64,000 nt of DNA, taken from the NCBI GenBank assembly GCA_965208635.1, contig OZ242349.1, forward strand, positions 2,049,769-2,113,768, in the 5' to 3' direction. The DNA comes from Candidatus Poribacteria bacterium. GTDB lineage: Bacteria; Poribacteria; WGA-4E; WGA-3G. Both the position numbers and the translations under genes were made by a program. The notes under the pieces were generated by a model. That model was not told the origin of the DNA and ran no database searches. It was given only the letters and a program-made list of their open reading frames with translations. Of the stretch, positions 4,115-40,025 are shown in pieces. Position 1 is the first letter of the stretch. The number at the start of each line of letters is the position of its first letter.

Positions 4115-4124
4115 TAACCGCCAT

Positions 4125-7239: not shown

Positions 7240-7340
7240 TTTTTAACTATGGTTGTCGGGGCGGGTTTCTACGCAACCCTTTCAGTTTAAACCATCAACT
7301 CGCCTCAGTTATAAATGTTAAAGCACGAGTTGATGATTAA

Positions 7341-7415: not shown

Positions 7416-7434
7416 TCCGTGTTAGGACACCAAA

Positions 7435-14083: not shown

Positions 14084-15190
14084 TTAAAAAGTTCGATTAC
14101 GCGCCGTGACCTCCCATGTCCCCCGACAATACCCATCGGCATCTACAAGATAATAAAAAGGGTGTAGCGCAACACACGGACAGATATGTGTCGGACAGAC
14201 ATAAATCTCTTGTCCGATGTGCATCGGCGAACTGTCAGGGACGTTAACCGCCCAATGTTCCTCATGCTGCGTGGTCACTTCAGCACCGTCAACATCCAAA
14301 ACGATCCCGCGCACACCCTCAGGATCTGCAGCGATGGCTTTGTGCCCCAAATCAAGGGTAATCCTATGCGGCGTAGGAATACTAATCACACGGCTCAGAA
14401 GCAGTGCCGCGGGAGTAAAACCGAGATCGGGATAGCGGGTCGAGTAACCGTAATCATGAAAAACGAAAGTGCCAGGGGATGCCTCCACACCCGGAGTTTT
14501 CGCATAAATAGGGAAGGTCGGTGTACCACCCATCACGATCAAGGGCACCTCAAGCCCTTTAGCAGCAAGCCTGTCCTTCATCTCTTCTACCTGCACGAGA
14601 CTCTTATCACAGGATGCCTTCCGCTCAGCGACATCTTCATCGTGGATATGTCCATCGTAGACGTGCAGTCCCCACGGTTGCAATCCATCTGCCGCTTCAA
14701 TCTGCGCATAGACATCCACAGCGGTATCACCGACGGGTACACCTGTGCGGTGCATCCCGACATCCAAATCCAGCATGACTTTGACGCTCAAGCCGTACTT
14801 TGCTACCGCTGATGAGAGTGCCGTTACCGCCTCTTGATGATCGACGACGACCTTGAAATCAGCCTCTGGATACTTCAACTGTAGCGATGCGAAACGGCTG
14901 ACGTTAGGTCCTACCATCTGATAGGCAATCAAAATATCCTCTATACCGTTCTGTGCCAGCATCTCTGCTTCCCGTAATGTCGCGCATTTGTGCTTAAGGA
15001 TACCAGCATCACGTTCCATCGCGATAATTTCAGCGGTTTTATGCGTTTTCGCATGCGGTCTGAGTTTCGAGACATCTCCGTCGACAGTCGCAATCGCATG
15101 GTCAATGTTATATTGAACCTGTGCGAGATAGACTACCAGCGATGGACTCGGTATCGTTTCAACGTTCTGAACACGGTATTTCTTATCCAT
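14084..15190 (-). CDS. D-threonine aldolase/D-serine dehydratase-like (DSD1 family) PLP-dependent enzyme
   Basis: LRPHAKTHK PLP-lysine motif and an alanine-racemase-N-like fold, followed by a C-terminal beta domain. Confidence 0.65.
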   Translation of the reverse strand: MDKKYRVQNVETIPSPSLVVYLAQVQYNIDHAIATVDGDVSKLRPHAKTHKTAEIIAMERDAGILKHKCATLREAEMLAQNGIEDILIAYQMVGPNVSRFASLQLKYPEADFKVVVDHQEAVTALSSAVAKYGLSVKVMLDLDVGMHRTGVPVGDTAVDVYAQIEAADGLQPWGLHVYDGHIHDEDVAERKASCDKSLVQVEEMKDRLAAKGLEVPLIVMGGTPTFPIYAKTPGVEASPGTFVFHDYGYSTRYPDLGFTPAALLLSRVISIPTPHRITLDLGHKAIAADPEGVRGIVLDVDGAEVTTQHEEHWAVNVPDSSPMHIGQEIYVCPTHICPCVALHPFYYLVDADGYCRGTWEVTARNRTF

Positions 15191-15251
15191 AACCTCACCT
15201 CTTTCAGCGTTAAAATACTAGGGCATTTCTTAACATTTACCACATCAGTGA

Positions 15252-16673
15252 TTAGGTCAACGTTGCAGTCCGCAGGATAATCCGATCCTTTGTCCAATTA
15301 TCGCGATACCACGTACACGCTTCAAAGGTATCGTTAATCGCATTCATGCGCTGCTGCAAGAGAATTCGGAATTGATCTCGGAGTCCGGGCGATTCGGGTT
15401 CATCAATCAGATTCCGGGTTTGGAACGGGTCATCAACATTATCGAAGAGTTTCTCACTTCGATCCGGACGATGGATGGCGTAAGTATATCGTTTCGTACG
15501 GAGGGCGCGCCACTCATACCCGTCCTCCCACTTGGCAGTACATCCCATTCCTTGCATGAACGCCGCATCCGGTTCATCAGCGGGTTGGTGAAATGGGGTG
15601 TTGCTGAGATCCCTCCCTTCAACCTCTCCCGGAATCGGAAGACCCATCATCGACAACAGCGTCGGCATGATGTCTGGCGTGTTCAAGCATGCATCTGATA
15701 CATGACCTTTCGGAATCTGATCCTGCCACCGAACCAGAAACGGCACGCGCACCGCCTCTTCATAAAAGATATTCTTTGCACGACGACCTTGCGCACCAAA
15801 CATCTCACCGTGATCGGAGGTAAACACAAAGATCGTATTATCACGCAATCCGAGGTCATCAACGGCTTGCAGCAACCGCCCTATATTCCGATCCAGATTT
15901 GCAGTCATGGCGTAATAGACGCGCATCCACTCAGGGAGCGCAGCGCGTTCGGCGGGGGACATAACTGCCCATGTGTCGCTATAAGGATCGTTTTCGTCTC
16001 GATAGTTCGGCGGACGTGGGAAGTAAACGTCCTTGAACATCTCATAATCAGTGGCTGGAACGTTGTCCTGTGTCCACGGATCGTGCGGTGTCCCGATTGA
16101 GAGGAAAAGCGCGAACGGATCATCGCTCGTTGATGCCCGCTGCAGGTAATCGATTGCCATATCGGTTTGACCGTCCGGTTCATAACCCGGAATCACGATC
16201 TTTTCAGGCGAGTCTTTGTGATAATATGTGTCAAAGTACAGGTGATGAAAATTGTAAGCCGACCATTCCCCATCGAAACCGAGCCGATGTTGTCCCGGCG
16301 GAATGTAAGAATTCTCCGGATCGTTGTGTCTCCCTAATTGATTTGCCCACAGATGCCATTTCCCGATGTAGCTTGTCTGGTAACCGTTACGATGTAAAAC
16401 ATGACCGAAACAGTCATGATTCGGGTTCATGCGAAGCTCATTAATCGCCATACCGGTGCTACTGGCGTATTTACCGGTGAAGAGTGAGGCACGATAGGGG
16501 GCACACATCGGGCTACCGGAGACAGCGTTGCAGAAATTCGTACCCTCTGTCGCAAGCCGATCGATATTAGGGGTCCGTGCGCGGGTATCGCCAGCATAGC
16601 CACACGACTGGTAGCGGAGCTGATCGGCGAAAACATAAACGAGGTTCGGTTGCCGAGTTGTTGAATGAGACAT
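15252..16673 (-). CDS. Cys-type sulfatase (arylsulfatase family)
   Basis: LVYVFADQ, the formylglycine motif MCAPYRASLFTGKY (CxPxR) and FTSDHGE. ATG 16673 has a GGAG SD. The track ORF starts at TTG 16691. Confidence 0.9.
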   Translation of the reverse strand: MSHSTTRQPNLVYVFADQLRYQSCGYAGDTRARTPNIDRLATEGTNFCNAVSGSPMCAPYRASLFTGKYASSTGMAINELRMNPNHDCFGHVLHRNGYQTSYIGKWHLWANQLGRHNDPENSYIPPGQHRLGFDGEWSAYNFHHLYFDTYYHKDSPEKIVIPGYEPDGQTDMAIDYLQRASTSDDPFALFLSIGTPHDPWTQDNVPATDYEMFKDVYFPRPPNYRDENDPYSDTWAVMSPAERAALPEWMRVYYAMTANLDRNIGRLLQAVDDLGLRDNTIFVFTSDHGEMFGAQGRRAKNIFYEEAVRVPFLVRWQDQIPKGHVSDACLNTPDIMPTLLSMMGLPIPGEVEGRDLSNTPFHQPADEPDAAFMQGMGCTAKWEDGYEWRALRTKRYTYAIHRPDRSEKLFDNVDDPFQTRNLIDEPESPGLRDQFRILLQQRMNAINDTFEACTWYRDNWTKDRIILRTATLT

Positions 16674-16981
16674 CAAAGGACTCCGATGCAAAAATTGTTA
16701 TGACTTATGATACCTGTAGCATAGCATATTCCAGCAAATCGTTCAAGAAAAAATTGATACCGAGACTGCACACAACAGTAAAGAAAGTGTATTATTTTTA
16801 GTTATATTCAGGCTTTGTAACTTTTAATTTGAAAAATAATTATAATCCACCTATTATAACCAATACGGGTTGATAGTGTGTAGCAGAAGTGAAATAACCC
16901 GCGCCAGTAGCACAGAAGATTTAAACACGAGTCAAAAAACGCTACAAATTTGATTAATAAATTAATAAGGAGTATTTTTTG

Positions 16982-19873
16982 ATGCAGAAGAAGGAACCTT
17001 TCGTTCCGAATGTTATAGGGCTGAAAGCCCACATTACAAAAATAGTTTTCTCAATTTTACTGTTAGGTATTCTCTCACCTGCCTTCTCCCAAAACGAAGA
17101 GGCCCCCTCGTCTAAAATTACACTGCAACTGCTCCACGCAGCAGACATGGAGGGTGGTATTGAGGCACTCGAAAACGCCCCTCGCTTCTCATCAGTACTG
17201 AATGCGCTCAAAGCCGAGGTTGAAAATACAGTCATCATCGGGGCTGGCGATAGCTACATTCCCGGTCCGTTTTTCGCAGCTGCCAATAACGGGAGTCTTC
17301 GTGAAGTATTGGGAAGAGAAGGTTCAGGACGCGCCGACATTCTGATGCTCAACGCGATGGGCTTCATGGCAGGCGCACTTGGAAACCATGAATTTGACGC
17401 AGGGACTGGTACGCTTGCTGGACTGATTAAAGTAGATAGAGACTATGTTGGCACAGCCTTCCCATTCTTGAGTGCGAACTTAGATTTCAGTCCTGATAGC
17501 AATCTCGCGCCTTTAGTTGTTGACTCTGGCCAAGAAGCGAGCACAATCCCGAACAGTATCACCAAAAGCGTGGTCATCACGACCCCTTCAGGCGAAAAAG
17601 TGGGCGTTGTCGGCATGACGACACCGTTGCTCGGAAGCCTTTCTTTATCTGGAAACGTCGGAATTGCCCCCGCACACCCAAACGATATGGCAGCATTGGC
17701 AACTATCATTCAAGAATCCGTTGACGCATTGACAGCAACCGGCATTCATAAGATTATTCTTACCGGACACCTTCAACAAATTAGCCTTGATGAAACGATC
17801 GCAATGCATCTGAAAGATGTTGACATTATCATTGCTGGAGGTTCAAATACTCTACTCGCCGATGGAACAGATCGCCTCCATCCTGGGGATACTGCGGAAC
17901 GTCCCTATCCGATTTTGACCCAATCCTCTACGAATGAACCGATTGCAATCGTGGGGACAGATGGAAATTACCGATACGTTGGGCGGTTAGTCGTCGATTT
18001 TGACGCAGCAGGTGTCTTAATTCCTGAATCGATTGACGCTACAGTTAGCGGTGCTTTCGTTACCGACGAACAGGGTGTTGCGGATACCGGCAATGCGGAA
18101 CCCGCAGCACCTGTCGTTGAGATTACAGAGGCGGTCCGGAATGTTGTGATCGCAAAGGACGGCAACCTCTTTGGACAAACAAGCGTCTATCTGAACGGTA
18201 ACCGTGGCTCCGTCCGTACGGAAGAAACAAACATCGGTAACCTAATCGCCGAGGCAAACCTCGCCGCGGGGCAACAGGTTGACCCGAATGTAGTTGTGTC
18301 TTTGAAAAATGGCGGAGGCATCCGCGCCCCGATCGGTGTCACTATAGGCAGCGACCTGTTCCCACCCCCTGCAAACGCTTTAGTTGGTAAAGCGATGGGT
18401 CAGATTTCACAGATCGACATCGAAAATACACTCCGATTCAACAACGGATTGACGCTTTTGACCTTGAGCGCAGCGGAACTGCTCGAAGTCATCGAACACA
18501 CAGTTGCCGCCTCCGGTGGCGGCTCAACGCCCGGGCGTTTCCCCCAAATCGCAGGAATGGCGTTCAGTTTTGATAACTCGCTGCCGGAGGGTTCAAGGGT
18601 TCAGTCGCTTATCATCACCGACGCAGATGGAAATCTGACGGACACAATTGCCCAGAATGGTGAAATCGTGGGGGATGCAACTCGCACTTTCCGAATGGTC
18701 ACAATCACTTTCCTTGTCGATGGCGGAGACGACTATCCGTATGCTAATTTCCCGAATACCAATCGCGTTGACCTTACTGAAGTGATGACGGAGGAACAAT
18801 CTGGTGGGCAAGCCACCTTTGCCGACCCCGGCACGGAGCAAGATGCACTCGCGGAATACCTCGTAGCGAACTTCTCTGAGACACCGTTTGCGATTGCGGA
18901 TGTTGGTCCCGAAAGCGATGAACGTATACAGAATCTCACATTCCGTGCCGACAGCCTGATTATGCCGATGACAGGCGAGAACCTATTTAATATAGAACTC
19001 AGCGCGGGTTTGAACATGATCGGTCTACCCTTGATGCCGAGCGAACCTTACGCAGCACGTTCCCTCATGGAAAAAATCGGAGCCACCACCGTCATCGAAT
19101 ACAATTCAGCGACTGGACGTTACATCGGGTTCACGGCAAATTCTGACGGCAACGGATTCCCGATTGAAGGTGGAAAGGGCTATATTGTCAATGTTACCGC
19201 ACCGAAAAATGTCAGTTTCATAGGCAGTGGATGGAAGAACACAGCACCAGCAGCACCAGCGGCACCGACACAGAGATTAACTCAGCAGGTGTGGGCATTT
19301 GTCCTACGTGCGCAGCTTGAAGGAATCAGCGGTGTGGAACTAACCGTCTACAACAGGCACACCAGAGTTGCTGAAGCGGTTGACACTAACAATTTCCACG
19401 CCGTCTGGGCAGATATGAACCGCCAGGTCTCCGTTGTTTCTGCCGGTGATATACTGACGATTGAAGTCCGGGACACAACAGACAACCTGATCCGTACACT
19501 CCAGCACGAAATCAGTGTGGCAGACATCCACCGAGCGTTCACCGAAGTTCGGCTCACACCCGCTGACCTCATCCCGAAATCGACAGTTCTCCTTGCGAAT
19601 TATCCGAACCCTTTCAATCCAGAAACGTGGTTGCCCTATCAACTCGCAAATGACGCTGAGGTTACCATTCGTATCTATTCATCCGCGGGACACCTCGTTC
19701 GGCATCTGGACCTCGGATTCCAGCAGGCGGGTTATTACATCGGCAAGTCGCGTGCCGCTTATTGGAACGGGCGCAATGATTTGGGGGAAAGACTCGCTTC
19801 GGGCGTTTATTTTTACCAACTGAGCACCGGTGAGTTGCCGAAAACTATTCGAAAAATGGTTATAAGGAAATAA
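16982..19873 (+). CDS. secreted bifunctional metallophosphatase/5'-nucleotidase-like protein with extra beta domains and a C-terminal T9SS/FlgD-Ig-like sorting domain
   Basis: Signal peptide. Metallophosphoesterase motifs HAADMEGG, GAGDSYIPG and GNHEFD. A 5'-nucleotidase C-terminal-like region. The last ~98 aa (19577..19870) read ANYPNPFNPETW...GVYFYQL. An AAGGAG SD is present. Confidence 0.8.
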   Translation: MQKKEPFVPNVIGLKAHITKIVFSILLLGILSPAFSQNEEAPSSKITLQLLHAADMEGGIEALENAPRFSSVLNALKAEVENTVIIGAGDSYIPGPFFAAANNGSLREVLGREGSGRADILMLNAMGFMAGALGNHEFDAGTGTLAGLIKVDRDYVGTAFPFLSANLDFSPDSNLAPLVVDSGQEASTIPNSITKSVVITTPSGEKVGVVGMTTPLLGSLSLSGNVGIAPAHPNDMAALATIIQESVDALTATGIHKIILTGHLQQISLDETIAMHLKDVDIIIAGGSNTLLADGTDRLHPGDTAERPYPILTQSSTNEPIAIVGTDGNYRYVGRLVVDFDAAGVLIPESIDATVSGAFVTDEQGVADTGNAEPAAPVVEITEAVRNVVIAKDGNLFGQTSVYLNGNRGSVRTEETNIGNLIAEANLAAGQQVDPNVVVSLKNGGGIRAPIGVTIGSDLFPPPANALVGKAMGQISQIDIENTLRFNNGLTLLTLSAAELLEVIEHTVAASGGGSTPGRFPQIAGMAFSFDNSLPEGSRVQSLIITDADGNLTDTIAQNGEIVGDATRTFRMVTITFLVDGGDDYPYANFPNTNRVDLTEVMTEEQSGGQATFADPGTEQDALAEYLVANFSETPFAIADVGPESDERIQNLTFRADSLIMPMTGENLFNIELSAGLNMIGLPLMPSEPYAARSLMEKIGATTVIEYNSATGRYIGFTANSDGNGFPIEGGKGYIVNVTAPKNVSFIGSGWKNTAPAAPAAPTQRLTQQVWAFVLRAQLEGISGVELTVYNRHTRVAEAVDTNNFHAVWADMNRQVSVVSAGDILTIEVRDTTDNLIRTLQHEISVADIHRAFTEVRLTPADLIPKSTVLLANYPNPFNPETWLPYQLANDAEVTIRIYSSAGHLVRHLDLGFQQAGYYIGKSRAAYWNGRNDLGERLASGVYFYQLSTGELPKTIRKMVIRK

Positions 19874-24964: not shown

Positions 24965-25191
24965 GGTGATCCTAAATTTCAGAGCTTTCAGAGTAAATAC
25001 GAAAGAACAATACGTCAAAAAATGGGCGAAACCTCACGTCAGACGTGGCTTTGTGTGGTTTTGGAATAAATTGGCACTCGGAACTACTCTGAAATTAACG
25101 AAGCATTCGCGATGCCTCAAGTTTCAGAGCGATCATCCCTCTTATTGCTTATCGCTTTCAGCATTCTAATCGGTTACTTTCGCCCAAAATT

Positions 25192-28155
25192 CTAATCTGA
25201 TGCCTCCACTTTGGAAAGTAATTCAAGAAGATGGATTGAAGGAATTACCAAGTTACGATTCTGATGCTGAAGATGTTTCTCTATGAACATTTCCTTTGCT
25301 GCAACACCTATAACTTGTCCTTTCCTGTTCAGTACAGGACACCCGTTACATCCATCAGGAATCGGCGCGGTAATTTCAAAAAAATTCCTTTCATAAAGAC
25401 GACTGATAATACCTTGTGAAAACGTATCCGGGCTACTTGCGACGTAAATGGTATCACCTATTTGAACATCCTCGTTGCTGAGATACAGAGGTTGTACATC
25501 AGTATTCGACACCTTTAGTATCGCTAATTGATCGTCAATAGCAGCTATACCTTCAACTTCAATACAAGGAACTTCATAACTGTCTTTCCGCTGATCGTGG
25601 TACAGTGTCAATGAATCGTCTTTATAAATAATATTATCAATCTTCTGAATAATTGCATTAATCCAACTGGATGCGAATCTCCTGGAGTTGGTCCGTTTCC
25701 ATACGAACGAAGTATTGCTTTCCAGATCGTATAACTTGCCGAATCTTTTTCGCCTGAAGTATCCTGGGGGTGTTGCAAGAAAACGATGTGTAGCAATTAG
25801 ATTCTGTTTAACGAAAAAGCCATTACCGGAAGCATGGTTATATTCTCTGGTATATTCCATAATTCCCAATGTACTCCTGGGTGGGCGTGCTCCTTTTTCC
25901 ACCATTAGTACTATGCTATCCAATACGCGCCGGGCTATCTGCTTAGAAGTTTGTGGTGTTTTCGTAATATCCCATAGAAGAATTGTGCCATCATCACTCC
26001 CACTCGCGAGGGTGCGGCCATCAGGACTGAAGGCTACCCAACTAATATAACCAGTATGCCCTTTGAGAGTGGCCTTGTGGCGACCTGTCGTATTAAACCA
26101 AGTCGGATATATACGTGTATCGTCGTGAGATTGATGGAGGATTCTGTGCACATTCCACAAAGTTACATCCTTACTTCCTACAGCAAGGGCAGAACCATCA
26201 GGACTAAAGGCAACACTTGAAACACCGTCAAGTCTATTAAGGGACGCTTTACATTCTTCACTGACCACATCCCACAAATATACCTCTCCATCTCCCGAAC
26301 TTCTAGCTCCACTGGCGAGAGTCCGCCCATCAGGAGAAAACGCAATGCTAAAAACATATTCCTTCCCATGTCCCGCGAGTGTGGTTTTAAGTTCCCCATT
26401 GGTGGCATCCCACAGATACACCGTGCCATTTCCACTCCCGCCAGCGACAGTAAGACTATCAGGAGAAAACGCCACACTCAAGATAGTTTCATAATGTTCA
26501 GTGGTTAGCGTGGCTTTATTTTTGCAAGTAACGGCATCCCACAATTGAATTGTAGTGTCCTTTGCCAAATCATCTCTACTGCCGGTCGCGAGCGTTTTCC
26601 CATCAGGGGAATAGGCTAATACGAAGCCATCAATAGAATATTCTCGTAATGGTTCACTCGTTTGAACGCCTCTACGCCCTTCAAAAGTGGTAGCTCGAGG
26701 TTTCCCAGATTCCACATCCCAAAGCCGGATGGTACCATCTTCACTCGCACTCGCAAGGGTTTTTCCATCAGGGGAATAGGAGACAGCATCAGCAAACATT
26801 TTGAAGTCGTCTTTTATCCATCGTCCCAAAGGCACCTTGAACGTGCTTTGAAGGCACCCTGATCGCACATTCCAAATGCGAATTATCTTATCACCCACTT
26901 TGCCGTGTCCACTTCCACTAGCGATTGTACTGCCATCAGGATCGAATGATATGGAAGAAACAGATCTTGTATGCCCTGTGATCGTTTGCAAGTGTTCTCC
27001 AGTGACAGCGTTCCATAACCGGATAGTGCTGTCACCACCTATACCTGCAAATGCTCTGCTATCAGGGTTGAAAACAAGGCTATAAACTTCATCAGTATGT
27101 TCAGTGAGGGTTAACTTGTGCTCACCACTAACAGCATTCCACAATCTAATTTTCTTGTCTCGATCTGCAATAGCAAGTGTGCTGCTATCGGGACTGAAGG
27201 CAATAGCATCTGAATATCCTGTAAGTTCTGCCTTGAGTTGGTACGTGGCGGTATCCCACAGAAGAATTTTGTCATCCTTACTCGCACTGACAAAAGAAGC
27301 ACCATTGGGGGAGTATGCTACCGTAAAGACACTGTTTGTATGCTGCTCTGTGAGTGTTTCTTTATGTTCACCTGTGGCAGCATCCCATAATTGAACAGTA
27401 CCCGGCCATAGATCTCTATCAATATTGTTGTCCCAACCTCCAGTAGCGATTGTGTCTCCATCTGGACTGAATGCGATGGAATTGGCGCGAAAATCAGGAT
27501 TCTCAAGGGTAATGTGTTGACCAGTTTCTATATTCCACAATCGAATCATTTCAACATTTTTCATAGGCCCCCCGAAAAAACCACCACTATCTGCACTTGC
27601 GAGCGTTTGACCATCAGGACTGAATACCATCAATTTATATCCACCTGTATGTCCTTTGAGTGTCGCTTTGCGTTTACCGGTAACAACGTCCCACAATCGT
27701 ATCGTTCCGTCTCCACGTGGGTCTACATTTCCACTGGCGAGGATACTACCATCGGGACTGAATTCTACACAGGTTACACGTTCCTCATGCTCACCAAGCG
27801 TTACTTTGTGTTCTCCAGTGTTTGGATCCCACAAGCAAACCGTACCAGCATACAAGGAACCATCGGGGGAATACGCAATCAACTCCGGCCAAACTGCCCC
27901 ACCGCTAGCTAAGGTATGACCATCGGGGGAGTACGCAATCAACTCCGGTCCCTTTATATGTCCTGTGAGAAGATTCAATTCTTTGCCCGTATGGGCATTG
28001 TATATCCATATCCCAATGGAACTACCGACTGCAAGTTGCGTACCATCTGGAGAATACCTGATTTGACCTATTATTCCCTTCCCAAGGCGTGATCTGGGCT
28101 CTTCGGAGACATACCATTCAGCATTGTTTTGGGTAGGGTCATTTGGAAAAAACAT
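25192..28155 (-). CDS. WD40-repeat protein (16 SPDG...LW(D/N) units) fused to a C-terminal chymotrypsin/S1-like domain with a non-canonical active-site motif
   Basis: 16 repeats of the (F/Y)SPDG..LASG....I.LWD type. The C-terminal ~240 aa carry SGNGFFV..NLIATHRF (His), DDQLAILKV (Asp) and DGCNGCPVLN in place of GNSGGPLLN. Confidence 0.8.
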   Translation of the reverse strand: MFFPNDPTQNNAEWYVSEEPRSRLGKGIIGQIRYSPDGTQLAVGSSIGIWIYNAHTGKELNLLTGHIKGPELIAYSPDGHTLASGGAVWPELIAYSPDGSLYAGTVCLWDPNTGEHKVTLGEHEERVTCVEFSPDGSILASGNVDPRGDGTIRLWDVVTGKRKATLKGHTGGYKLMVFSPDGQTLASADSGGFFGGPMKNVEMIRLWNIETGQHITLENPDFRANSIAFSPDGDTIATGGWDNNIDRDLWPGTVQLWDAATGEHKETLTEQHTNSVFTVAYSPNGASFVSASKDDKILLWDTATYQLKAELTGYSDAIAFSPDSSTLAIADRDKKIRLWNAVSGEHKLTLTEHTDEVYSLVFNPDSRAFAGIGGDSTIRLWNAVTGEHLQTITGHTRSVSSISFDPDGSTIASGSGHGKVGDKIIRIWNVRSGCLQSTFKVPLGRWIKDDFKMFADAVSYSPDGKTLASASEDGTIRLWDVESGKPRATTFEGRRGVQTSEPLREYSIDGFVLAYSPDGKTLATGSRDDLAKDTTIQLWDAVTCKNKATLTTEHYETILSVAFSPDSLTVAGGSGNGTVYLWDATNGELKTTLAGHGKEYVFSIAFSPDGRTLASGARSSGDGEVYLWDVVSEECKASLNRLDGVSSVAFSPDGSALAVGSKDVTLWNVHRILHQSHDDTRIYPTWFNTTGRHKATLKGHTGYISWVAFSPDGRTLASGSDDGTILLWDITKTPQTSKQIARRVLDSIVLMVEKGARPPRSTLGIMEYTREYNHASGNGFFVKQNLIATHRFLATPPGYFRRKRFGKLYDLESNTSFVWKRTNSRRFASSWINAIIQKIDNIIYKDDSLTLYHDQRKDSYEVPCIEVEGIAAIDDQLAILKVSNTDVQPLYLSNEDVQIGDTIYVASSPDTFSQGIISRLYERNFFEITAPIPDGCNGCPVLNRKGQVIGVAAKEMFIEKHLQHQNRNLVIPSIHLLELLSKVEASD

Positions 28156-28252
28156 AGTGGCGATTTTCTTTTTAGGTAGCCTTTGGGTAGCATAATCTCA
28201 GCGTATCCAAGTGTTCACACAAATAAATCTGGAGTTAACCCACTTTAACACC

Positions 28253-30457
28253 TTAACTTGCAAATAGGTTGGGTGATGTTTGGCTTGGAGGTTGGAGCAA
28301 GTTAATTGGTATAGATGGTGTTTGGGGTTGCTCTGCCTGTTGTAGAGACATTGCGGTGAAGGTTTCAAGTGAGTAAAGTTCCATTCCACTTTGAAATTCA
28401 GACGGATTTTTCTCTACAGGTGAGGTGTAAATCTGTTCCTTTTTCTCTCTTAATATTGCAGCAATATCTTTTGGCAATTTAACGCCAGCCTTTTTCTCAA
28501 AACCCTCCACGCTTTGATAAGATTTACTAAAAACGGTAGGAATATCTATGCCTTCGTTTGCTGCACTTGTTAAGCTAATTCTGGCTTTCTCCCATTCTTG
28601 CTGGTGCAACCGAGCCATTGCGCGATTGTAATAGGCTGGTGCATAATCGGGATCTAACCTTAGTGCTTTTGTATAGTCTTTAAGGGCTTGATTAAACTCG
28701 TCATTGTTGAAGTAAGCCAGTCCACGATTGTGATAAAATATTGCCTCATCTCGACTCAGGTCTATCGCCTTACTGTAATTTTCAATAGCCTCGTCAAAAT
28801 CGCCGCCGTTACTATAAACGTTGCCAAGGTTATTATAAGCTGCAGCATTGTCTCGTTCCAATTCCAGTGCTTTTTTTAAGTCATCAATTGCTAGACTTAC
28901 CTCGCCAATGTCCCCATAGGCAACACCGCGATTGACATAAGCTCTGACATGCTTGGGATTAAGTTCTATCGTCTCAGTATAGTCCCTTATAGCCAAATCA
29001 AGTTTTCCCACGCTATTGTAACCAATGGCGCGATTGAAATAGATATTCGCATGGTTGAGCCCCAGTTCTATCGCCTTTGTACAGTCATCTAAGGCCTTGT
29101 CAACTTTGCCAATAATACCGTAAGCGGCCCCGCGACTAGCATAGGCTTCTACAGCCTGGGGATCAATTTGTACAACTGTCGTGTAATCGGCAATGGCTGA
29201 GTCAAGATCGCCTTTGAACAAGTAAACATTACCACGATTATGATAAGGTGCGGCAAACTTTGGATCAATTTGTATTGCCATTGTATAATCAGCGATAGCT
29301 TTGTCAAAGCTGCCTTTGTTACTATAAGCAATACCGCGATTGATATAAGATGGAATGTGGTTAGATTGGACCCGAAGCACTTCCGTATAATCCACAATAG
29401 CCCTATCAAATTCACTTCTTGCGCTGTAGGCGATGCCGCGATTAAAATAGCATTCGACGTGACGTGGATTTAGTTCTATCACTTTCGTATAGTCCGTTAT
29501 GGCTCTGTCAAAATCGCCATTGCTACTATAAGCATTGCCTCGTTCATAATACGCGTTGAGATAATCGGGTTGTAGTTTTACTGCTTTTGTGTAACTTTCA
29601 ATTGCCGAATTCACTTCGCCTTTGTTGTCGAAAGCCATACCCAGAATCAGATGCGCATCCGCAGCGTTGGAATTGCGTTCCAACGCTTTTTCACAGTCTG
29701 TAATAGCGGAGTCAAAATCCTCCTTAAGACTATAAGCAGTTGCGCGGGTGATATAAGGATGAGCAGCATTCGGATTGAGTTCTATCACCTTTTGGAAGTC
29801 TGCGATAGCGGAGTCAAAATCCCTTTTAAGTAAGTGAATGTGGCCTCGCATAATATAGACTGGTGGGTAATTCGGTTTCAGTTTTATCGCCCTGCTATAG
29901 TCTGCAATAGCTTTATCACCCTCACCTTTGCTGCTATAAATATTACCACGAATAGCGTAGACTTCAGCAAAATCAGGCTTGATTCGTATCGCTTTGCTAT
30001 AGTCCATAATCGCGAAGTCAAGTTCACTTTTGTCTCCGTAAGCGTTGCCTCGAATGAGATAGGCCTCAGCAACATCAGGATTAAGCTGTATCGCCTTATC
30101 ACAATCTTCAATGGCACGATCGAACTCTTTCTTGCCAACATAAGCATGAGCGCGGTGGTAATAGGCCTCAGCGTAGTCCGGTTGGTATTGGATCGCCTTG
30201 GTGAAGTCTTCAATTGCCTTATCAATTTCACCATTAGCCCCATACGCCATACCGCGCCCGTGATAAGCTCTCGCGGGTTGGCGAGTCCAGAAAACCGCTT
30301 GGGTATAATCGTCAATCGCGAGATCAAACTTGCCCATCTTATGGTAAACTTCGCCTCGGTAAACATAGGGCATAACAAAACCGGGGCTCAGTTCAATAGC
30401 ATTGCTAAAATGCTTGACAGCTTCTTCATAGTGTGCCATCTTCGCTTTGTTAGCCAT
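28253..30457 (-). CDS. tetratricopeptide-repeat protein (about 19 consecutive 34-aa TPR units) with a non-repeat C-terminal tail
   Basis: Highly regular AI.DY..AI.L.P....AY..RG.AY units span nearly the whole ORF. The ATG at 30457 overlaps the upstream FRG gene by 8 nt, with a GGAGA SD. Confidence 0.85.
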   Translation of the reverse strand: MANKAKMAHYEEAVKHFSNAIELSPGFVMPYVYRGEVYHKMGKFDLAIDDYTQAVFWTRQPARAYHGRGMAYGANGEIDKAIEDFTKAIQYQPDYAEAYYHRAHAYVGKKEFDRAIEDCDKAIQLNPDVAEAYLIRGNAYGDKSELDFAIMDYSKAIRIKPDFAEVYAIRGNIYSSKGEGDKAIADYSRAIKLKPNYPPVYIMRGHIHLLKRDFDSAIADFQKVIELNPNAAHPYITRATAYSLKEDFDSAITDCEKALERNSNAADAHLILGMAFDNKGEVNSAIESYTKAVKLQPDYLNAYYERGNAYSSNGDFDRAITDYTKVIELNPRHVECYFNRGIAYSARSEFDRAIVDYTEVLRVQSNHIPSYINRGIAYSNKGSFDKAIADYTMAIQIDPKFAAPYHNRGNVYLFKGDLDSAIADYTTVVQIDPQAVEAYASRGAAYGIIGKVDKALDDCTKAIELGLNHANIYFNRAIGYNSVGKLDLAIRDYTETIELNPKHVRAYVNRGVAYGDIGEVSLAIDDLKKALELERDNAAAYNNLGNVYSNGGDFDEAIENYSKAIDLSRDEAIFYHNRGLAYFNNDEFNQALKDYTKALRLDPDYAPAYYNRAMARLHQQEWEKARISLTSAANEGIDIPTVFSKSYQSVEGFEKKAGVKLPKDIAAILREKKEQIYTSPVEKNPSEFQSGMELYSLETFTAMSLQQAEQPQTPSIPINLLQPPSQTSPNLFAS

Positions 30458-31163
30458 CTTCTGAATCTCCTCTTTGTTTTTCCGCTAAGCCCTTGTAAAT
30501 TGTTTTATAGGTCTCCAATTTAAGACTCTGATGCCTAATAAACCCATGGATGTCATTGTAGATGGTTTCAGCAGATATACCGTGTGCTCTTTCGAGATGC
30601 TCCAGCATCGGCTGCTTGAGATCTGCAGGAACGTTAATAACATCGTCTTCATTAGGCTGAATAAAGCCATCCGGATGCCTAACGAATACACTCTTCTGAG
30701 CAATGATACGATTTAGTGGCTCATAAGCGTCCTTAATGTAAGAGGCTATCAGTTCCTTTTTCTGCATAATAATCCTACCATCTTTACTAAGAGAAGTGTT
30801 ACAAGCCATGAAGAGTGCGACGAGATAGTCTTCCGTGAAATCAATGAGGTTGGTTTTACCCCCGTAGTGTTGAATCTCATCAAGACGCTCAAGTTCAACA
30901 GGTGTTCTTCGGGCAAAAAGTTTAGCTACTTCCAACATTTCTGATTGGACAACTTCTATATCAAAGTGTTCTGTTTCAACGTCAAATTCTTCATCCTCAA
31001 GGAAAACGCGATAGAGATTTGAGGAGACCTTCCCATAATAAGGAGCTTCCTGATAGTGTTCAGGTTCACCGCGATAAAGATACTCTCCAGTATCCGCTTT
31101 TACTTCTATTCTTCGGAGTATTCCATCAACCGAACTTAGATCGTTTTGATTTTCGCTGTTCAT
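30450..31163 (-). CDS. FRG-domain protein
   Basis: YRGEPE, IQHYGGKTNLIDFTEDYLVALFMA and RIIAQKSVFV match the FRG-domain signature (FRGQ / QHYGLPTRLLDWT..ALFFA / R..aQ.G.F). ATG 31163 has an AAGGAAAG SD. The track ORF starts at 31253. Confidence 0.65.
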   Translation of the reverse strand: MNSENQNDLSSVDGILRRIEVKADTGEYLYRGEPEHYQEAPYYGKVSSNLYRVFLEDEEFDVETEHFDIEVVQSEMLEVAKLFARRTPVELERLDEIQHYGGKTNLIDFTEDYLVALFMACNTSLSKDGRIIMQKKELIASYIKDAYEPLNRIIAQKSVFVRHPDGFIQPNEDDVINVPADLKQPMLEHLERAHGISAETIYNDIHGFIRHQSLKLETYKTIYKGLAEKQRGDSEDG

Positions 31164-31315
31164 CCACTTTCCTTTACGATCACAATGCTGTCTACAAGAA
31201 TAACACGTTTGGCACGGGATGTCAACCGAATTTAATCGAAAGATTAGCGGCATTAGTTTTCTGCTATGTTTGTATGAACAGTCGCGATCAGAAGATCGCT
31301 CCTACAGCATCCTTC

Positions 31316-31344
31316 TTGAATAATTCTTTGTAAAGTGATATGCT
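31316..31344 (+). promoter_or_regulatory. possible sigma70-type promoter (TTGAAT-17 nt-TATGCT) for the sulfatase gene
   Basis: TTGAAT at 31316..31321, a 17-nt spacer, then TATGCT at 31339..31344, 36 nt before ATG 31380. Confidence 0.3.
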
Positions 31345-31379
31345 GATTCCATCAACAAATACAAGGTAAAGGAAACAAT

Positions 31380-32891
31380 ATGCCTGAAACCAGACCTAAT
31401 ATCCTACTTATTACGAGCGATCAGCAACATTGGAATACCTTGGGCTGCCTCAACGCTGAAATTCAGACCCCGCACTTAGATGCATTGGCACAGCAAGGCA
31501 CACTTTTCAATAGAGCCTACTGCCCGAACCCGACCTGCACCCCTACACGCGCCTCTATTATTACCGGAAAATATCCGAGCCAACACGGTGCCTGGTCCCT
31601 CGGCACGAAACTCTCTGAAGATGAGCATACCGTCGGTGAAGATTTCACGGATGCGGGGTATCGCACTGCCCTCGTCGGCAAGGCGCATTTTCAACCGCTC
31701 CACGGTACTGAGGAATTCCCGTCTCTCGAATCCTATCCGATCCTCCAAGATTTGGACTTTTGGCGCAGTTTCAATGAACCGTTTTACGGGTTTGAACACG
31801 TTGAACTCGCACGCAACCACGCCGACGAAGCGCACGTTGGACAACACTACGCTATCTGGATGGAGGAAAACGGCTGCCCCAATTGGCGCGACTACTTCGC
31901 GCCGCCGACAGGGAACGCTCGCGGGCAGTATCGGAAATGGCACATTCCAGAAGAATATCATTACGATACATGGATTGCGGAACGCACCAACGCACTCATG
32001 GAAACATATCAGCAGAATGGCGAAAACTTTTTCCTTTGGGCGAGCTTCTTCGATCCACATCCAAAATATCTCGTGCCAGAGCCGTGGGATACGATGTACG
32101 ACCCAACGGCATTGACAGTGCCTTCCGTAACCGAGGGAGAACATGATAACAATCCACCGCATTTTCAGCTAACACAACAAGAAAAGCCTGACTTCTCGGC
32201 TTGGCGTGAAAGTGGAAAGGGTGCCCACGGCTTCAACTCACATTTACGCGATCAAGATGAACTCGCCAAAGACATCGCTGTCTATTACGGGATGGTGACG
32301 CTGATGGACAAATACATCGGGAAAATCTTGGCGAAACTCGATGAACTCGGACTTGCAGAGAACACACTGGTTGTCTTCACATCCGACCACGGACACTTCT
32401 ACGGACAGCACGGACTTGTGGCGAAGGGTGCATTTCACTATGAAGACGTGATCCGAGTGCCGTTTATCGTGCGGCATCCGGGGATCGTACCTGCGGGAAG
32501 ACACTCTGACGCGTTGCAAACATTGGTAGATTTAGCACCTACATTCCTCAGTGCCGCCGGTATCGACGTACCACTACCGATGACGGGTGTCGATCAGATG
32601 CCGGTCTGGTCGGGAGAAGCAGAACAGGCGCGCGACCATATCATCGTTGAAAACCACCATGAACCGACAACAGTACACGTTAAAACCTATGTTAACGATC
32701 GTTATAAACTCACTGTCTACTACAACCGAGAGTATGGGGAATTGTTTGATTTGCAAGAGGATCCGGGAGAGGTCAAGAACTTGTGGGATTCTGCCGAACA
32801 CTCAGCACTAAAGGCGGATCTGGTGATGAAGTTATTGTTCGCAGAGATGGGGAAGGAACCGTTGTGGATGCCGCGAACTTCGGGGGCGTAG
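31380..32891 (+). CDS. Cys-type sulfatase
   Basis: NILLITSDQQ, CTPTRASIITGKY (CxPxR) and FTSDHGH. Confidence 0.9.
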   Translation: MPETRPNILLITSDQQHWNTLGCLNAEIQTPHLDALAQQGTLFNRAYCPNPTCTPTRASIITGKYPSQHGAWSLGTKLSEDEHTVGEDFTDAGYRTALVGKAHFQPLHGTEEFPSLESYPILQDLDFWRSFNEPFYGFEHVELARNHADEAHVGQHYAIWMEENGCPNWRDYFAPPTGNARGQYRKWHIPEEYHYDTWIAERTNALMETYQQNGENFFLWASFFDPHPKYLVPEPWDTMYDPTALTVPSVTEGEHDNNPPHFQLTQQEKPDFSAWRESGKGAHGFNSHLRDQDELAKDIAVYYGMVTLMDKYIGKILAKLDELGLAENTLVVFTSDHGHFYGQHGLVAKGAFHYEDVIRVPFIVRHPGIVPAGRHSDALQTLVDLAPTFLSAAGIDVPLPMTGVDQMPVWSGEAEQARDHIIVENHHEPTTVHVKTYVNDRYKLTVYYNREYGELFDLQEDPGEVKNLWDSAEHSALKADLVMKLLFAEMGKEPLWMPRTSGA

Positions 32892-36518: not shown

Positions 36519-39500
36519 TTATTGCGATAAAAACTCGTAGTAATCGTCAACGAGTCTACGGTACTCAGGCGGGACATCCTCCTTTGCGACCTGAGCGAGC
36601 CGTTTCTTCTCCTGTAGCGTGTTAAGCCGCTCTTCAAGTGCGGACTCCAACTTATCAAGGTCTCTAATAACGAATTCGTAGTTAGGAAATGGATTTGAGC
36701 GATTCCCGGGTCGGTAGTCCATTGTATCAAGCATACCGAGCCAGAGTCTATCAATCTCCCTGTTTGACTCCCTGCCCCCAACACGTGCTTCCTGATCTGA
36801 GGGTTCATCGGGATTTCCAGGTTGGTTCCCATCCCGACGCTGCCTCGCCTCTTGTGCGCGCTGCATCTGTTCTTGAATCTGTTGTTGTTGCTGCGCGAGC
36901 TGTTCCCGACGCTGCTGTTGCTCTTCCGTCTGCTCCTGACCTTCCATCGCTTGAAGTTCGCGTTCGATGTCCTGCATCCGTTCCCGAGCTTGTTGGAGTT
37001 GTTCAAGTTCGGCTTCGAGTTGCTCTTCTTCGGTATTCGCCATATTGGCTCGCGCCTGCTGCAGATCCCCTTGTGTCTGCTCCAATGTATCTAAGACCGC
37101 TTGCTGATTCTGGTTAGCGGCTCGGAAACTACGCCATTGTAAGGCACGTTGCGCAGTCGCCATATCTTCCGCAGTCTGCTCTTCAGCGAGACGTCTTGTC
37201 GCCTCTGCTACATTCTGGGCTGCCTCCGGATTGTCCGGAGTGAGTTGCTCCTGAATGTCTCTCAGTGTGCGGTCAAGTGTCTCCAGATTCCGTTGAAGTT
37301 CGCGCTGCTGATTGGCAAGTTCAGACGCCCTTCGGAAATCTTCAGGACGCATCTCTGATGCCTGAGAACGACCCCTGAGTTCCTGTGTCTGCTGCTGAAC
37401 ATCAGATTGCGCTTCTGTCAACTCCTGAAGTTGTTGAGAGGCTCTATCCAGCGCAGCATCTGTGTACTCTGCCGCGACCTTTTCCAACTGCTCAATGGCT
37501 TCCTGAAGTCTCTCCTCCGCCTTTTGTCCCTTGGCGGCACTCAACTGCGGTTCCTCCTGTTGCATGCCCTGCGAGGCTTCTTCCATCTGTTCACTTGCTT
37601 GTTGCATCGCCTCTCCAGCTTGGTTTAGGCGTTGCCCTTGGGTGCCTTGTCCACTCTGTTGCATGGTGCTGAGTTGCTGTGCCATCTGCTGCGCTTGTTG
37701 TGACAACTGCCCCTGTTGCTGGCTGTTCTGTTGCATTTCACTTGGCGAGGGTTGGTTTTCACGTCCTAACTGTTGGCTTTGTTCACTCAACTGCTGCTGT
37801 TCCCCCAGCATCTGACGCGCTTGATCCAACATCTCCTGCGTTTGCTCCTGCATTTCCATGTCGAGTTCGTTCTGCTGATTCTCAAGCTCGCTTTGCAACT
37901 CCTCCATCTCAAGTTCAAGCTCCTCGGCGAGTTGGGGATTACTATTCCGCATCTGCATCAGCACTTTGGGAATCTCAAGGCTAACTTTTATGAGCAATTC
38001 AAGTGCTGCCTGTTCCGGCGGAATTGCTTCATCAGGACGGACAGCGTTTAGACTATCACTCGCTTCACCCATTTTGTCTATTGCGTCCTCAAGGTTCATC
38101 AGAATCTCGGGCGTGACGGCTGATTCCCCTTGCATCGCAGCACTAAATTCATCTACAACCCGTTGCGTCTTATCCTTTAATTCGGTTTGTTTTTCGCCCG
38201 TTTTCCTAACGGCAGCCTGATATTTCTGGGTAACCGCCACAGGTTTCGCACGAATGTGCTTTGATGTCTCTCGGATAATCTCCTTCTGGGAACTAATTAC
38301 ATCCGAAAGTGGATTCGGTTCAGTTGGTCCGGGTTCCCCCTCACTTTCGCCTTCGTGGAAATTCTCATTAAAGGGACGGATTTCAATGAAGTAAAGGTCG
38401 CTACTATCTTCGCCGGGACCGGTGCGTGTGTTATTATCAGTAGCGTGGGCGTAGTAGGAGATAATATCGCCCGGTTCAATGTCAAATTCCTCCAAGTAGA
38501 AGGTATAGGCACCCTCTGCATATTGGCTTTCGGCTGACTGCGACGCAGGTTTCCGCGTACGGGAGTCCTGCGGGACAATGCTGACTGCTTCTTTCGACGA
38601 TTCCATCACAAGTGCCTGTAATTCATCAGATCCGATGCGATACATGAGTTTTAATTCTGCAACGCCGTAGTCATCTGTTGCTTCAGCGATGATCTCCACC
38701 TCATCTAACTTCGTAGCTTTCACATCTCGACCGGGTTCCTTGATAACGACTTCTGGAACAGCATCTGGAATGGCTCTGATCATGTATTCAATCGGTATCT
38801 CGTTGTTAAACCCATCAATACACAACAACTGAATATCATAACTTCCGTCCTCAACAACATCTATAGTGGTCGTAAGCGTATTTCCATCAGAGATAGTCAT
38901 TTGCGTTGAAACAGGTTCTGGGGTCGCACTCAATTCTTGGGCAGTGGAAACCTGTAAGTCGTTCACTACATCAGTTCTATGGGAGAACGTCGCAGTTTGA
39001 ATCGCTTTATTTGTCATAAGCCTTATTTCTGCTTGAGTACCAACGACAGCATGAATATCCCCTGTCCCTGTTTGCACAACAGGCTTAAGACCGGTGTAGT
39101 CAGGGTAAGTGTAAGCGACCGAAATTTCAGTCACTTTTGGCATTTCAAAGACCTCAACAGTATAGCGTTCTGAAGTCGCCTCGTTTGCAACGACAGAGTA
39201 TTCCATATCGGCATCAATGTTGAAAATTTCATACGCAAACCCGCGCTTATCGTCCGGATTTTGCAGCATGTTAATTTGTTGTTCGCCTTTGTTGACATCG
39301 GATGTCGAGAGTTGCTGCACACCAATATCTCTATACGTCAAAACGACCTTATCCGCGGATTTACCGGTGACAGTGATATAAATCGGCAGGCTCTTGCCGC
39401 GGAGGATACGCGCATTTCCCGGCTCAACAGCCAGTTTGGTTGTCAGAATAGGATCTGTTTTCTCCCAAGGGACCAACACCCGGAGGAGGCTCGTATGAAT

Positions 39501-40025
39501 TTCCGTCGGAAACAACAATGAAAGGATAACACACCCGACAACAACCAAAGCAGCAATGCCGACATGCTTACGGGTTCGACTTTGATCGATCGTTGCTTTG
39601 AAATTGATGCCTTTTACCCGCTCAGTGGTATCCTCAAGCAAGCGTTGAAGCATGTGTGTCTCAATCGGATCCGCCGATTCTCGGTTTCCGAATTCAATGG
39701 CACTCACCAACCTATCTTCAAGGTCCGGATGATTGCGTTCAACGTTGAGGGCGACATCACGAAGCGTGAGCGATGCTCGGAGCGGTTGAACGAGATACTT
39801 ATACAACAGGTAACCCATAACACCTGCACCGACCCCTAATAAAGTGATGCGTACAGTGCCAGGGAGCGGCATCAGCCAATCAATGATCGCTTCCCCCACA
39901 AGTAAAGCAATAACACCCGTCAAGACAATAGCAAACCCTGTCCAGAAGAGACTTCGTTTCCAGACCCGCCGTGCTCCTGAAATTCTCGCTTGTAATTCCG
40001 CGTAACCTTCTCTTGTATTCATCAT
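36519..40025 (-). CDS. giant membrane-anchored protein: 2 N-terminal TM helices, DUF4175-like segment, beta-rich middle, ~350-aa Q/E-rich coiled-coil/low-complexity region
   Basis: The TM pair is followed by LRDVALNVERNHPDLEDRLVSAIEF, which I recall as DUF4175-like. The Q/E-rich tract spans roughly 36890..37925. Confidence 0.6.
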   Translation of the reverse strand: MMNTREGYAELQARISGARRVWKRSLFWTGFAIVLTGVIALLVGEAIIDWLMPLPGTVRITLLGVGAGVMGYLLYKYLVQPLRASLTLRDVALNVERNHPDLEDRLVSAIEFGNRESADPIETHMLQRLLEDTTERVKGINFKATIDQSRTRKHVGIAALVVVGCVILSLLFPTEIHTSLLRVLVPWEKTDPILTTKLAVEPGNARILRGKSLPIYITVTGKSADKVVLTYRDIGVQQLSTSDVNKGEQQINMLQNPDDKRGFAYEIFNIDADMEYSVVANEATSERYTVEVFEMPKVTEISVAYTYPDYTGLKPVVQTGTGDIHAVVGTQAEIRLMTNKAIQTATFSHRTDVVNDLQVSTAQELSATPEPVSTQMTISDGNTLTTTIDVVEDGSYDIQLLCIDGFNNEIPIEYMIRAIPDAVPEVVIKEPGRDVKATKLDEVEIIAEATDDYGVAELKLMYRIGSDELQALVMESSKEAVSIVPQDSRTRKPASQSAESQYAEGAYTFYLEEFDIEPGDIISYYAHATDNNTRTGPGEDSSDLYFIEIRPFNENFHEGESEGEPGPTEPNPLSDVISSQKEIIRETSKHIRAKPVAVTQKYQAAVRKTGEKQTELKDKTQRVVDEFSAAMQGESAVTPEILMNLEDAIDKMGEASDSLNAVRPDEAIPPEQAALELLIKVSLEIPKVLMQMRNSNPQLAEELELEMEELQSELENQQNELDMEMQEQTQEMLDQARQMLGEQQQLSEQSQQLGRENQPSPSEMQQNSQQQGQLSQQAQQMAQQLSTMQQSGQGTQGQRLNQAGEAMQQASEQMEEASQGMQQEEPQLSAAKGQKAEERLQEAIEQLEKVAAEYTDAALDRASQQLQELTEAQSDVQQQTQELRGRSQASEMRPEDFRRASELANQQRELQRNLETLDRTLRDIQEQLTPDNPEAAQNVAEATRRLAEEQTAEDMATAQRALQWRSFRAANQNQQAVLDTLEQTQGDLQQARANMANTEEEQLEAELEQLQQARERMQDIERELQAMEGQEQTEEQQQRREQLAQQQQQIQEQMQRAQEARQRRDGNQPGNPDEPSDQEARVGGRESNREIDRLWLGMLDTMDYRPGNRSNPFPNYEFVIRDLDKLESALEERLNTLQEKKRLAQVAKEDVPPEYRRLVDDYYEFLSQ

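Follow-up and report, generated by a model that had tools for sequence, protein, structure and literature searches.

The window analysed here is a 64-kb stretch of the genome of a Candidatus Poribacteria bacterium, an uncultivated sponge symbiont. Three co-directional open reading frames (ORFs) lie on its minus strand at 25192..31163 and encode first an FRG-domain protein, then a TPR protein, and then a WD40 protein with a C-terminal protease-type domain. A sequence-only reading of the window had singled out this trio as a candidate undescribed conflict or host-interaction module without an NTPase. Our analyses revealed a discrete cassette whose alleles have been exchanged between Poribacteria species at one fixed chromosomal site, and an FRG protein whose relatives elsewhere mostly carry a TPR array in the same polypeptide. 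The features of the locus are as follows.

31197..31225, minus strand: promoter-like site, TTGACA, 17-nt spacer, TG-TATTCT (consensus match only)
30450..31163, minus strand: FRG-domain protein, 237 aa, with a predicted ADP-ribosyltransferase (ART)-like head (Pfam FRG, PADLOC PDC-S15)
28253..30457, minus strand: TPR protein, 734 aa, with 18 repeats, a cap motif and a variable P/Q-rich tail (Pfam TPR_1)
25192..28155, minus strand: WD40 protein with 15 repeats and a catalytically dead trypsin-fold domain (S1, Trypsin_2-like), an optional accessory (Pfam, motif columns)
25099..25119, minus strand: terminator-like hairpin 3' of the WD40 gene, 8-bp stem and T-rich tail (consensus match only)
24978..31163, no strand: cassette, divergent and exchangeable relative to L009, the closest sampled genome (DNA identity)

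The three ORFs were confirmed at the positions originally proposed, and profile scans of the flanks verified that they lie between two sulfatase genes, with PhyH genes farther out. The FRG stop and the TPR start share 8 nt (ATGGCTAA), and 97 nt separate the TPR and WD40 genes, both as first read. The repeat counts had been slightly too high, with 18 rather than about 19 repeats in the TPR protein and 15 rather than 16 in the WD40 protein; the C-terminal protease-type domain of the latter was recovered (Trypsin_2). The FRG ORF can be extended to 31253, which gives a 267-aa translation. The start was nevertheless placed at 31163, because more than 100 homologues are 232-247 aa long and start at the methionine at this position, and because the promoter-like site upstream of it (10 of 12 consensus positions, with an extended -10 TG) falls inside the longer ORF (30450..31253). 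The remaining neighbours are metabolic genes (PPK2, GMC oxidoreductase, transketolase). No tRNA gene was found in the 64-kb window, and no integrase gene among the flanking ORFs scanned.

The cassette is AT-richer than its surroundings, as the sequence-only reading had stated. In 1-kb windows the contrast was modest (GC 0.41-0.47 in the cassette vs. about 0.475). The GC content at third codon positions (GC3) was 0.37 for FRG, 0.40 for TPR, and 0.37 for WD40, compared with a window mean of 0.49 (sd 0.05); the corresponding z values of -2.4, -1.8, and -2.3 rank the three genes second to fourth lowest among the 43 ORFs of the window. Scans with Pfam, NCBIfam, and PADLOC profiles detected no NTPase domain (NACHT, NB-ARC, AAA or P-loop) in the three proteins, and no Walker A motif was found in them, the sole pattern match ('AYSPDGKT') falling within a WD40 repeat. 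A hidden NTPase in the trio was therefore rejected, and the earlier claim that none is present holds.

The FRG protein and its TPR partner

The FRG protein matched the Pfam family FRG (PF08867) with E = 2e-9 and 38.6 bits, against a cutoff of 25. It also matched 13 models of the PADLOC candidate system PDC-S15 (best E = 2e-16, with residues 26-243 of the 267-aa translation aligned to positions 35-267 of a 276-position model). An alignment of 51 diverse relatives showed that residues R31, G32, E33, S48, R52, Q98, T104, N105, I107, F109, G129, R130, R152, Q156, G166, K183, L190, Y202, N203, D204, and G207 are invariant. The first two of these belong to the (F/Y)RG motif, Y30-R31-G32 in the window protein. 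Invariant R31, S48, and Q156, together with a 'QHYG' stretch, are candidate ART motif residues.

Profile searches of PDB sequences, with shallow as well as diverse alignments, returned nothing credible for the FRG protein. An AlphaFold2 run on a shallow alignment of 36 close orthologues yielded a pLDDT of 58.7 and meaningless fold matches. Adding relatives of 40-55% identity, to give the 51-sequence diverse alignment, raised the pLDDT to 86.6 with a pTM of 0.81. When this model was compared with the PDB by Foldseek, 18 of 44 matches were ART-fold enzymes, including 8 of the top 10 (among them the Rhs toxin TreTu, cholera toxin A1, the rifampin ART Arr, DarT1, PARP10/12/4/2, Tpt1, and NarE), an enrichment of the list without a significant match. 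This enrichment agrees with a prediction for the Frg domain of the Aravind laboratory, which is the same Pfam family: Iyer et al. 2022 (PMC9503650, citing Burroughs & Aravind 2020) describe Frg as belonging to the ART superfamily, a predicted antiviral effector and a possible NADase.

The TPR protein matched Pfam TPR_1 with E = 3e-161. It consists of 18 gap-free repeats of 34 aa that begin at residue 19, with partial caps and, beyond the TPRs, a tail of 104 aa. Towards the C-terminus, at about residues 619-660, there is a conserved cap motif, and the tail beyond it is variable and rich in P and Q. The TPR-S model (PF20308) gave a whole-protein E of 4e-9 without an individually significant stretch and was swamped by TPR_1; only 16 of the 100 nearest relatives described below touch the same model. 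A homologue search with 126 aa of the tail returned only three close matches, and the cap motif was traced through fused proteins instead.

Positions 14, 15, and 18 of helix A, which presumably face the ligand, differ strongly between repeats of one protein (2.6-2.9 bits of entropy) and hardly between orthologues (0.4-0.5 bits). Variation between orthologues is concentrated at repeat positions 31, 24, 11, and 1, and asparagine recurs at position 15 in the C-terminal half of the array. Diversifying selection on the binding face was rejected on the basis of this conservation of repeat-specific helix-A positions. According to Tandem Repeats Finder, the repeats of the TPR and WD40 genes are not homogenised at the DNA level, and recent repeat amplification in these genes was rejected accordingly.

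Related loci were collected from species-representative genomes, 45 in total, of which 43 are from Poribacteria; the named homologues of the FRG protein are from Poribacteria as well. The TPR gene directly follows FRG in nearly all of the 45 loci with intact downstream DNA, and the stop-start overlap is usually 8 or about 32 nt; adjacency with such an overlap was seen in about 40 loci. A wider HMMER scan of 1.84 billion representative proteins recovered 1,524 FRG relatives at E <= 0.001, of which 235 reached E <= 1e-30. When the 100 nearest representatives at 50% identity clustering (36-57% identical to the window protein) were scanned with Pfam, FRG was found in all 100 and TPR in the same chain in 91. 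The fused form is thus the norm, and judged by sequence the FRG and TPR proteins are one protein split in two, which makes the Poribacteria locus a translationally coupled fission.

Single-polypeptide FRG-TPR proteins were also present in four distant loci, L037, L038, L043, and L044, the last of which comes from a metagenome-assembled genome of a gammaproteobacterium. These proteins carry FRG, then 3-14 TPRs, and then the cap motif 'EWEKAK.DLT.A...G.DI...F...Y.SV.DFE...G..LP.DIAA.L'. The same motif closes the repeat array of the window TPR protein; in the form 'EWEKA..DLT.A...G.DI...F...Y.SV..FE...G..LP.DIAA.L' it is common to the window protein, the fused proteins of these four loci and the fused FRG-TPR of locus L055.

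Six fused relatives were examined in their genomic context, and all six sit among defence genes. One (L050) is fused to a TaqI_C-like target-recognition domain and is followed by an AAA_15/23 ATPase gene. Another (L051) lies near GmrSD_N and RE_BsaWI. A third (L052) has GmrSD/HNH, TIR_2, and DndB upstream and a HEC-01A ATPase (E = 9e-123) downstream. The others lie near a Type ISP restriction-modification enzyme (L053), near IS3, methyltransferase, AAA_15, ResIII/REase, and HsdR genes (L054), and next to a PLD-helicase, an Eco57I-type restriction-modification gene, and a TIR-TPR gene directly upstream of FRG-TPR (L055). The repeats of this TIR-TPR protein have the same flavour as those of the window TPR protein (KAIELKPDFA.AY.NRG.AY), which suggests that NAD-type heads are interchangeable on one kind of repeat array. 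The fused relatives match the same PDC-S15 models as the window FRG protein.

Some further details of these loci were recorded. The TaqI_C-like domain in L050 (8001..13769) is of the Type IIG type, and a squalene-cyclase-like gene follows the ATPase gene. The HEC-01A gene in L052 (8001..11260) encodes an AAA_15-type ATPase and stands directly after the fused FRG-TPR. The L055 contig (1..17185) resembles a defence island, and its FRG-TPR gene is followed by a further three genes of the FRG or FRG-TPR kind and by Fic.

Searches of mobile elements yielded little: the FRG subfamily had no match among 72,556 plasmids and one weak match among GenBank phages, and a single relative (L049) was found among 2.9 million viral contigs of IMG/VR. 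The view that this subfamily is mainly plasmid- or phage-borne was rejected on these searches. The IMG/VR sequence (2969..7842) encodes a 659-aa FRG-containing protein, presumably an FRG-TPR, with phrog_7590 over residues 279-418; an integrase gene lies about 2 kb off and a ParA-like gene about 3.5 kb off.

The WD40 protein and its protease-type domain

The WD40 protein contains 15 WD-type repeat ends, and its C-terminal 250 aa match Trypsin_2 with E = 3e-10. Canonical relatives in this family have a hydrophobic, signal-peptide-like N-terminus and the motifs TN[YL]H, DLA[IL]LK, and GSSGGP. Among the S1C proteases (HtrA/DegP-like, Trypsin_2), secreted members could be aligned to about half of the window domain, with 36-52% identity. 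The window domain differs from them in that the Ser and Asp are missing, a WD40 array stands in place of the signal peptide, and about 60 aa are inserted following the His region.

The catalytic triad was checked in eight full WD40-linked Poribacteria copies, the window and seven genome loci. The Ser column holds Asn or Asp in all eight (GCNGCP, GCNGSP, GCDGSP, GSNGCP), and the Asp column Q, G, N or a gap in all eight. At the His column F, Y, P or H occur, with His kept in three of the eight. In the window protein, the His column is occupied by F and the Ser column by N (GSSGGP to GCNGCP), and the Asp column, where the Asp preceding LAILKV is lost, shows Q or a gap. Shorter database fragments of the WD40-linked domain displayed the same substitutions. 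The motif columns therefore mark the domain as catalytically dead. Since Ser and Asp are lost in every full copy and His is not conserved, the protease is not the effector, and the role that the sequence-only reading had assigned to it is withdrawn. Close homologues nevertheless share 42-92% identity in this domain despite the loss of the triad, as would be expected of a maintained pseudoenzyme.

Close homologues of the WD40 protein are rare, with 8 clusters among 5.8 billion proteins, and an exact-sequence look-up of the window protein returned no record. Wherever a copy has upstream DNA on its contig, in 8 genome loci and in two from metagenomes (L046, L048), FRG-TPR immediately precedes the WD40 gene; the contig of a further copy, L047, ends upstream of the WD40 gene, so that adjacency is not visible there. 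The converse does not hold, because the WD40 gene is present at only about 8 of the roughly 38 orthologous FRG-TPR loci. Co-occurrence of the trio was thus borne out for the FRG-TPR pair and only in part for the third gene. Being optional and having a dead protease domain, the WD40 protein is read as an accessory and not as the effector.

Two loci are of additional interest for this gene. In L010 (13012..13812) a 266-aa protein has a window-like N-terminus (MFFPNEPT...) joined straight to the dead-protease domain, the WD40 array having been deleted in frame. In L047 the WD40 gene was called in three pieces, and a DDE transposase gene (3553..4551, DDE_5/DDE_Tnp_1) lies between it and the downstream sulfatase gene.

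Allele exchange at a fixed site

The gene order PhyH, ORF, PhyH, sulfatase, FRG, TPR, (WD40), sulfatase recurred in about 35 Poribacteria species. The FRG genes at this site have a GC3 of 0.23-0.48 and the flanking genes one of 0.35-0.58, and FRG is the lower in every one of these species. Low GC3 at the same site in all species means that AT-richness is not a mark of recent arrival. Recent insertion into the window genome was rejected for these reasons, and the suggestion that the block was acquired as a unit does not stand as a recent event.

The boundaries of the cassette were sharp. Between the window and L009, the two flanks, with the intergenic stretch 31205..31405 among them, were 0.90-0.96 identical in DNA; identity dropped to about 0.7 right at the FRG start and returned to 0.93 from about 24977. 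Relative to the window, L009 lacks the entire WD40 gene and TPR sequence equal to five repeats. Synonymous divergence (dS) between the two was 0.27-0.34 in the flanks and 1.59 in FRG, where nonsynonymous divergence (dN) was 0.21. The trio is therefore a discrete unit, as the sequence-only reading had supposed.

Other pairs of genomes displayed the opposite pattern. L009 and L013 were 0.81-0.88 identical in the flanks and 0.90-0.97 identical in FRG and the first third of TPR, and the remainder of TPR was a mosaic (0.70-0.91). Among L009, L013, and L015, the dS of FRG was 0.18-0.20 and that of the flanks 0.7-1.3. No correlation between the dN of FRG and that of the flanks was seen in 136 genome pairs (Spearman rho = -0.07, p = 0.39). 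Sharp boundaries and discordant divergence together show that the history of the cassette is uncoupled from that of its flanks. At this one fixed site, Poribacteria species have exchanged cassette alleles, probably by recombination through the conserved sulfatase flanks. The length of the TPR protein ranges from 346 to 771 aa across loci. Locus L002 contains a second, tandem pair of FRG (219 aa) and TPR (334 aa) genes at 14228..15916, which separates the first pair from the sulfatase gene downstream.

Conflict module and rival explanations

We hypothesized that the cassette is an NTPase-free sensor-effector conflict module, composed of an ART-like FRG head, a TPR sensor with its cap, and an optional WD40/dead-protease accessory, and maintained at a fixed site with exchanged alleles. 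We give this reading an even chance of being correct, and within it the role of the module would most likely be anti-phage. It is read as a conflict locus because sharp boundaries, allele exchange, turnover in TPR length and WD40 content, a tandem duplication, and a low GC3 that persists in about 40 species are typical of such loci. The conflict or defence role first proposed is also the best-supported reading after our analyses, on the strength of the 13 PDC-S15 models and the defence genes around all six fused relatives examined.

The mechanism we infer is as follows. The FRG head would be a divergent ART-like enzyme that uses NAD+, either by hydrolysis or by ADP-ribosylation of a target. 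The FRG and TPR proteins would associate, like the fused versions, and the TPR array would restrain the head, which would stay inactive or without a target until a specific ligand docks on the concave surface of the array; this ligand may be a peptide, a protein or a modified self component. Released in this way, FRG would act to stop infection or growth. The WD40/dead-protease protein may add or modulate ligand capture, its non-cutting protease fold serving as adaptor, bait or brake.

Several known systems resemble parts of this arrangement. PDC-S15 is a single-gene FRG candidate whose best-matching models span 254-300 positions, apparently FRG without a long repeat array; the window FRG protein differs in having a TPR protein of 734 aa as a separate partner, with a WD40/dead-protease gene as an optional addition, and in lying at a fixed chromosomal site outside a defence island. 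BcTir/BcTpr and the TPR-S architectures share the layout of an N-terminal NAD-type enzyme and a C-terminal TPR in a one- or two-gene operon, and the TIR-TPR gene adjoining FRG-TPR in L055 adds to the likeness. BcTpr has an NAD+ glycosidase head and a C-terminal TPR reported to tune the enzyme, and it works with a TIR protein in reported anti-phage activity (bioRxiv 10.1101/2023.05.26.542521). Its head is MilB/DrHyd-like and not FRG, and its TPR region is about 225 aa long, compared with 18 canonical repeats in the window. STAND/Avs NTPase sensors also couple repeat arrays to an enzymatic effector, and the relatives of FRG-TPR share their conflict-type context. The window trio differs from them in lacking a NACHT, NB-ARC, AAA or P-loop module, in its dead protease fold, and in an enzyme predicted to be an ART-like head.

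A number of observations weigh against a conflict role or against parts of the mechanism. No Foldseek match of the FRG model to the PDB was significant (best E = 0.41, TM 0.25-0.46), and the catalytic Glu is not evident in the 'AQKS' strand, so that the ART assignment comes from the enrichment of the fold list and the literature prediction. Our literature search turned up no experiment on any FRG protein, and PDC-S15 itself is a computational candidate system only. The surroundings of the window locus are metabolic (sulfatases, PhyH, PPK2, transketolase) and do not form a defence island. Nearly all Poribacteria carry the cassette, and defence genes are seldom so widespread. FRG is under purifying selection, albeit relaxed (omega, the ratio of dN to dS, 0.1-0.2 vs. 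0.02-0.09 in the flanks). The presumed TPR ligand face is conserved between orthologues, which speaks for an unchanging ligand and against an arms race at this face. Finally, some of the loci are from metagenome-assembled genomes, and chimeric assembly at conserved flanks could mimic exchange; many of the genomes behind the loci are single-contig chromosomes.

Three other explanations were considered. According to the first, the proteins are host-interaction factors: the TPR and WD40 proteins would bind proteins of the sponge host and FRG would modify a host target. TPR and WD40 domains are reported to be strongly expanded in Poribacteria and have been proposed as mediators of host interaction (Kamke et al. 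2014, PMC3909097), and the cassette belongs to the same phylum and uses the same repeat classes as these eukaryote-like proteins of sponge symbionts. Its presence in nearly all sampled Poribacteria species is consistent with such a role, as is the orthologue-conserved concave face of the TPR array, which would suit a ligand that does not change, for instance a host protein. The fused relatives, moreover, come largely from samples resembling sponge or coral holobiont metagenomes (one with a Poribacteria contig; TARA records).

Many Poribacteria repeat proteins are reported to carry a Por-type sorting domain. The cassette proteins differ: no Por_Secre_tail match was found in any of the three (Pfam), and hydropathy analysis detected neither a signal peptide nor a transmembrane segment in them (19-residue maximum <=1.18, no N-terminal hydrophobic stretch). 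In the WD40 protein the very segment that serves as signal peptide in relatives of the protease domain has been replaced by the repeat array. The cassette genes are, furthermore, tied to an FRG protein with defence-island relatives: the fused forms lie in restriction/TIR islands and not beside secretion genes. Host interaction also does not predict allele exchange with persistent AT-richness. The host-manipulation alternative named by the sequence-only reading thus stands as a rival, less supported for want of a signal peptide or transmembrane segment, and we consider it unlikely.

According to the second explanation, FRG is an endogenous modifying enzyme that follows the logic of O-GlcNAc transferase and acts on the cell's own proteins or nucleic acids, for regulation or in a stress response. 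The TPR array would then select substrates, and the WD40/dead-protease protein would be an adaptor or a substrate. The conserved position among metabolic genes in about 35 species and the purifying selection on FRG would fit such an enzyme, and so would a long array of 18 repeats without interruption, in which helix-A residues are particular to each repeat but conserved from one orthologue to another, with the recurrent Asn at position 15. It accounts poorly for a cassette phylogeny uncoupled from the flanks, for mosaic alleles, and for variable TPR length and gene content; the defence-island context of all six relatives sampled and the match of the window FRG protein to PADLOC candidate models likewise speak against it. 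This explanation, too, has a low probability in our judgement.

ART-fold toxins with immunity partners are known. A selfish cassette of the toxin-antitoxin kind, in which the TPR protein, the WD40 protein or the two together neutralise an FRG toxin and which persists and spreads by addiction without benefiting the host, would be consistent with the translational coupling of FRG and TPR, the horizontal exchange of alleles, the low GC3, and a top fold match to TreTu in complex with its immunity protein, but it is improbable, since 91 of 100 relatives would then hold toxin and antitoxin in one polypeptide, unlike classical two-component addiction, and the family is without a plasmid match and nearly absent from phages.

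Returning to the conflict module, a bolder version holds that the locus is an unrecognised type of immune locus: a three-part NTPase-free sensor in which an 18-repeat TPR array controls FRG and the WD40/dead-protease protein is a decoy, with trans-species exchangeable alleles across the phylum. The decoy would capture phage protease inhibitors or protease substrates, akin to guard/decoy immunity in plants. We regard this version as distinctly unlikely.

Part of what the sequence-only reading called undescribed is already on record, FRG being both a defence candidate in PADLOC and a predicted ART (PMC9503650). New, as far as we found, are the split FRG-TPR form, the exclusive link with a WD40-pseudoprotease gene, and the behaviour of exchanged alleles at a fixed site across a symbiont phylum. 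FRG proteins are common (1,524 representative clusters at the threshold given above) and have been flagged as defence candidates; the usual attachment of FRG to a TPR array probably makes it a self-contained sensor-effector with ADP-ribosyltransferase-like chemistry. A conflict-type cassette that has kept one chromosomal address throughout the history of a symbiont lineage while its alleles were traded is a pattern little documented in uncultivated symbionts. The tempting annotation of a WD40-protease effector is corrected to that of a pseudoenzyme. Should the defence role be true, an NTPase-free repeat-sensor design would be added to bacterial immunity, with bearing on phage pressure within sponges.

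Four further observations were made elsewhere in the window. A 235-aa TPR protein encoded at 46044..46751 on the minus strand (TPR_6, E = 1e-6) has the lowest GC3 among the 43 ORFs (0.347, z = -2.7); its composition resembles that of the cassette, yet it lies 15 kb away. A 964-aa 5'-nucleotidase-domain protein encoded at 16979..19873 on the plus strand ends in FlgD_ig and has a weak, sub-threshold match of the Por_Secre_tail type. The segment 37001..38000 has a very strong AT skew of -0.366 and a GC content of 0.53 within an ORF of 1168 aa (36519..40025, weak DUF4175 match), and the skew probably reflects a compositionally biased region of the protein. A 650-aa protein encoded at 11901..13853 on the plus strand very strongly matches DUF6785 (E = 3e-152) and DUF6784, both families of unknown function.

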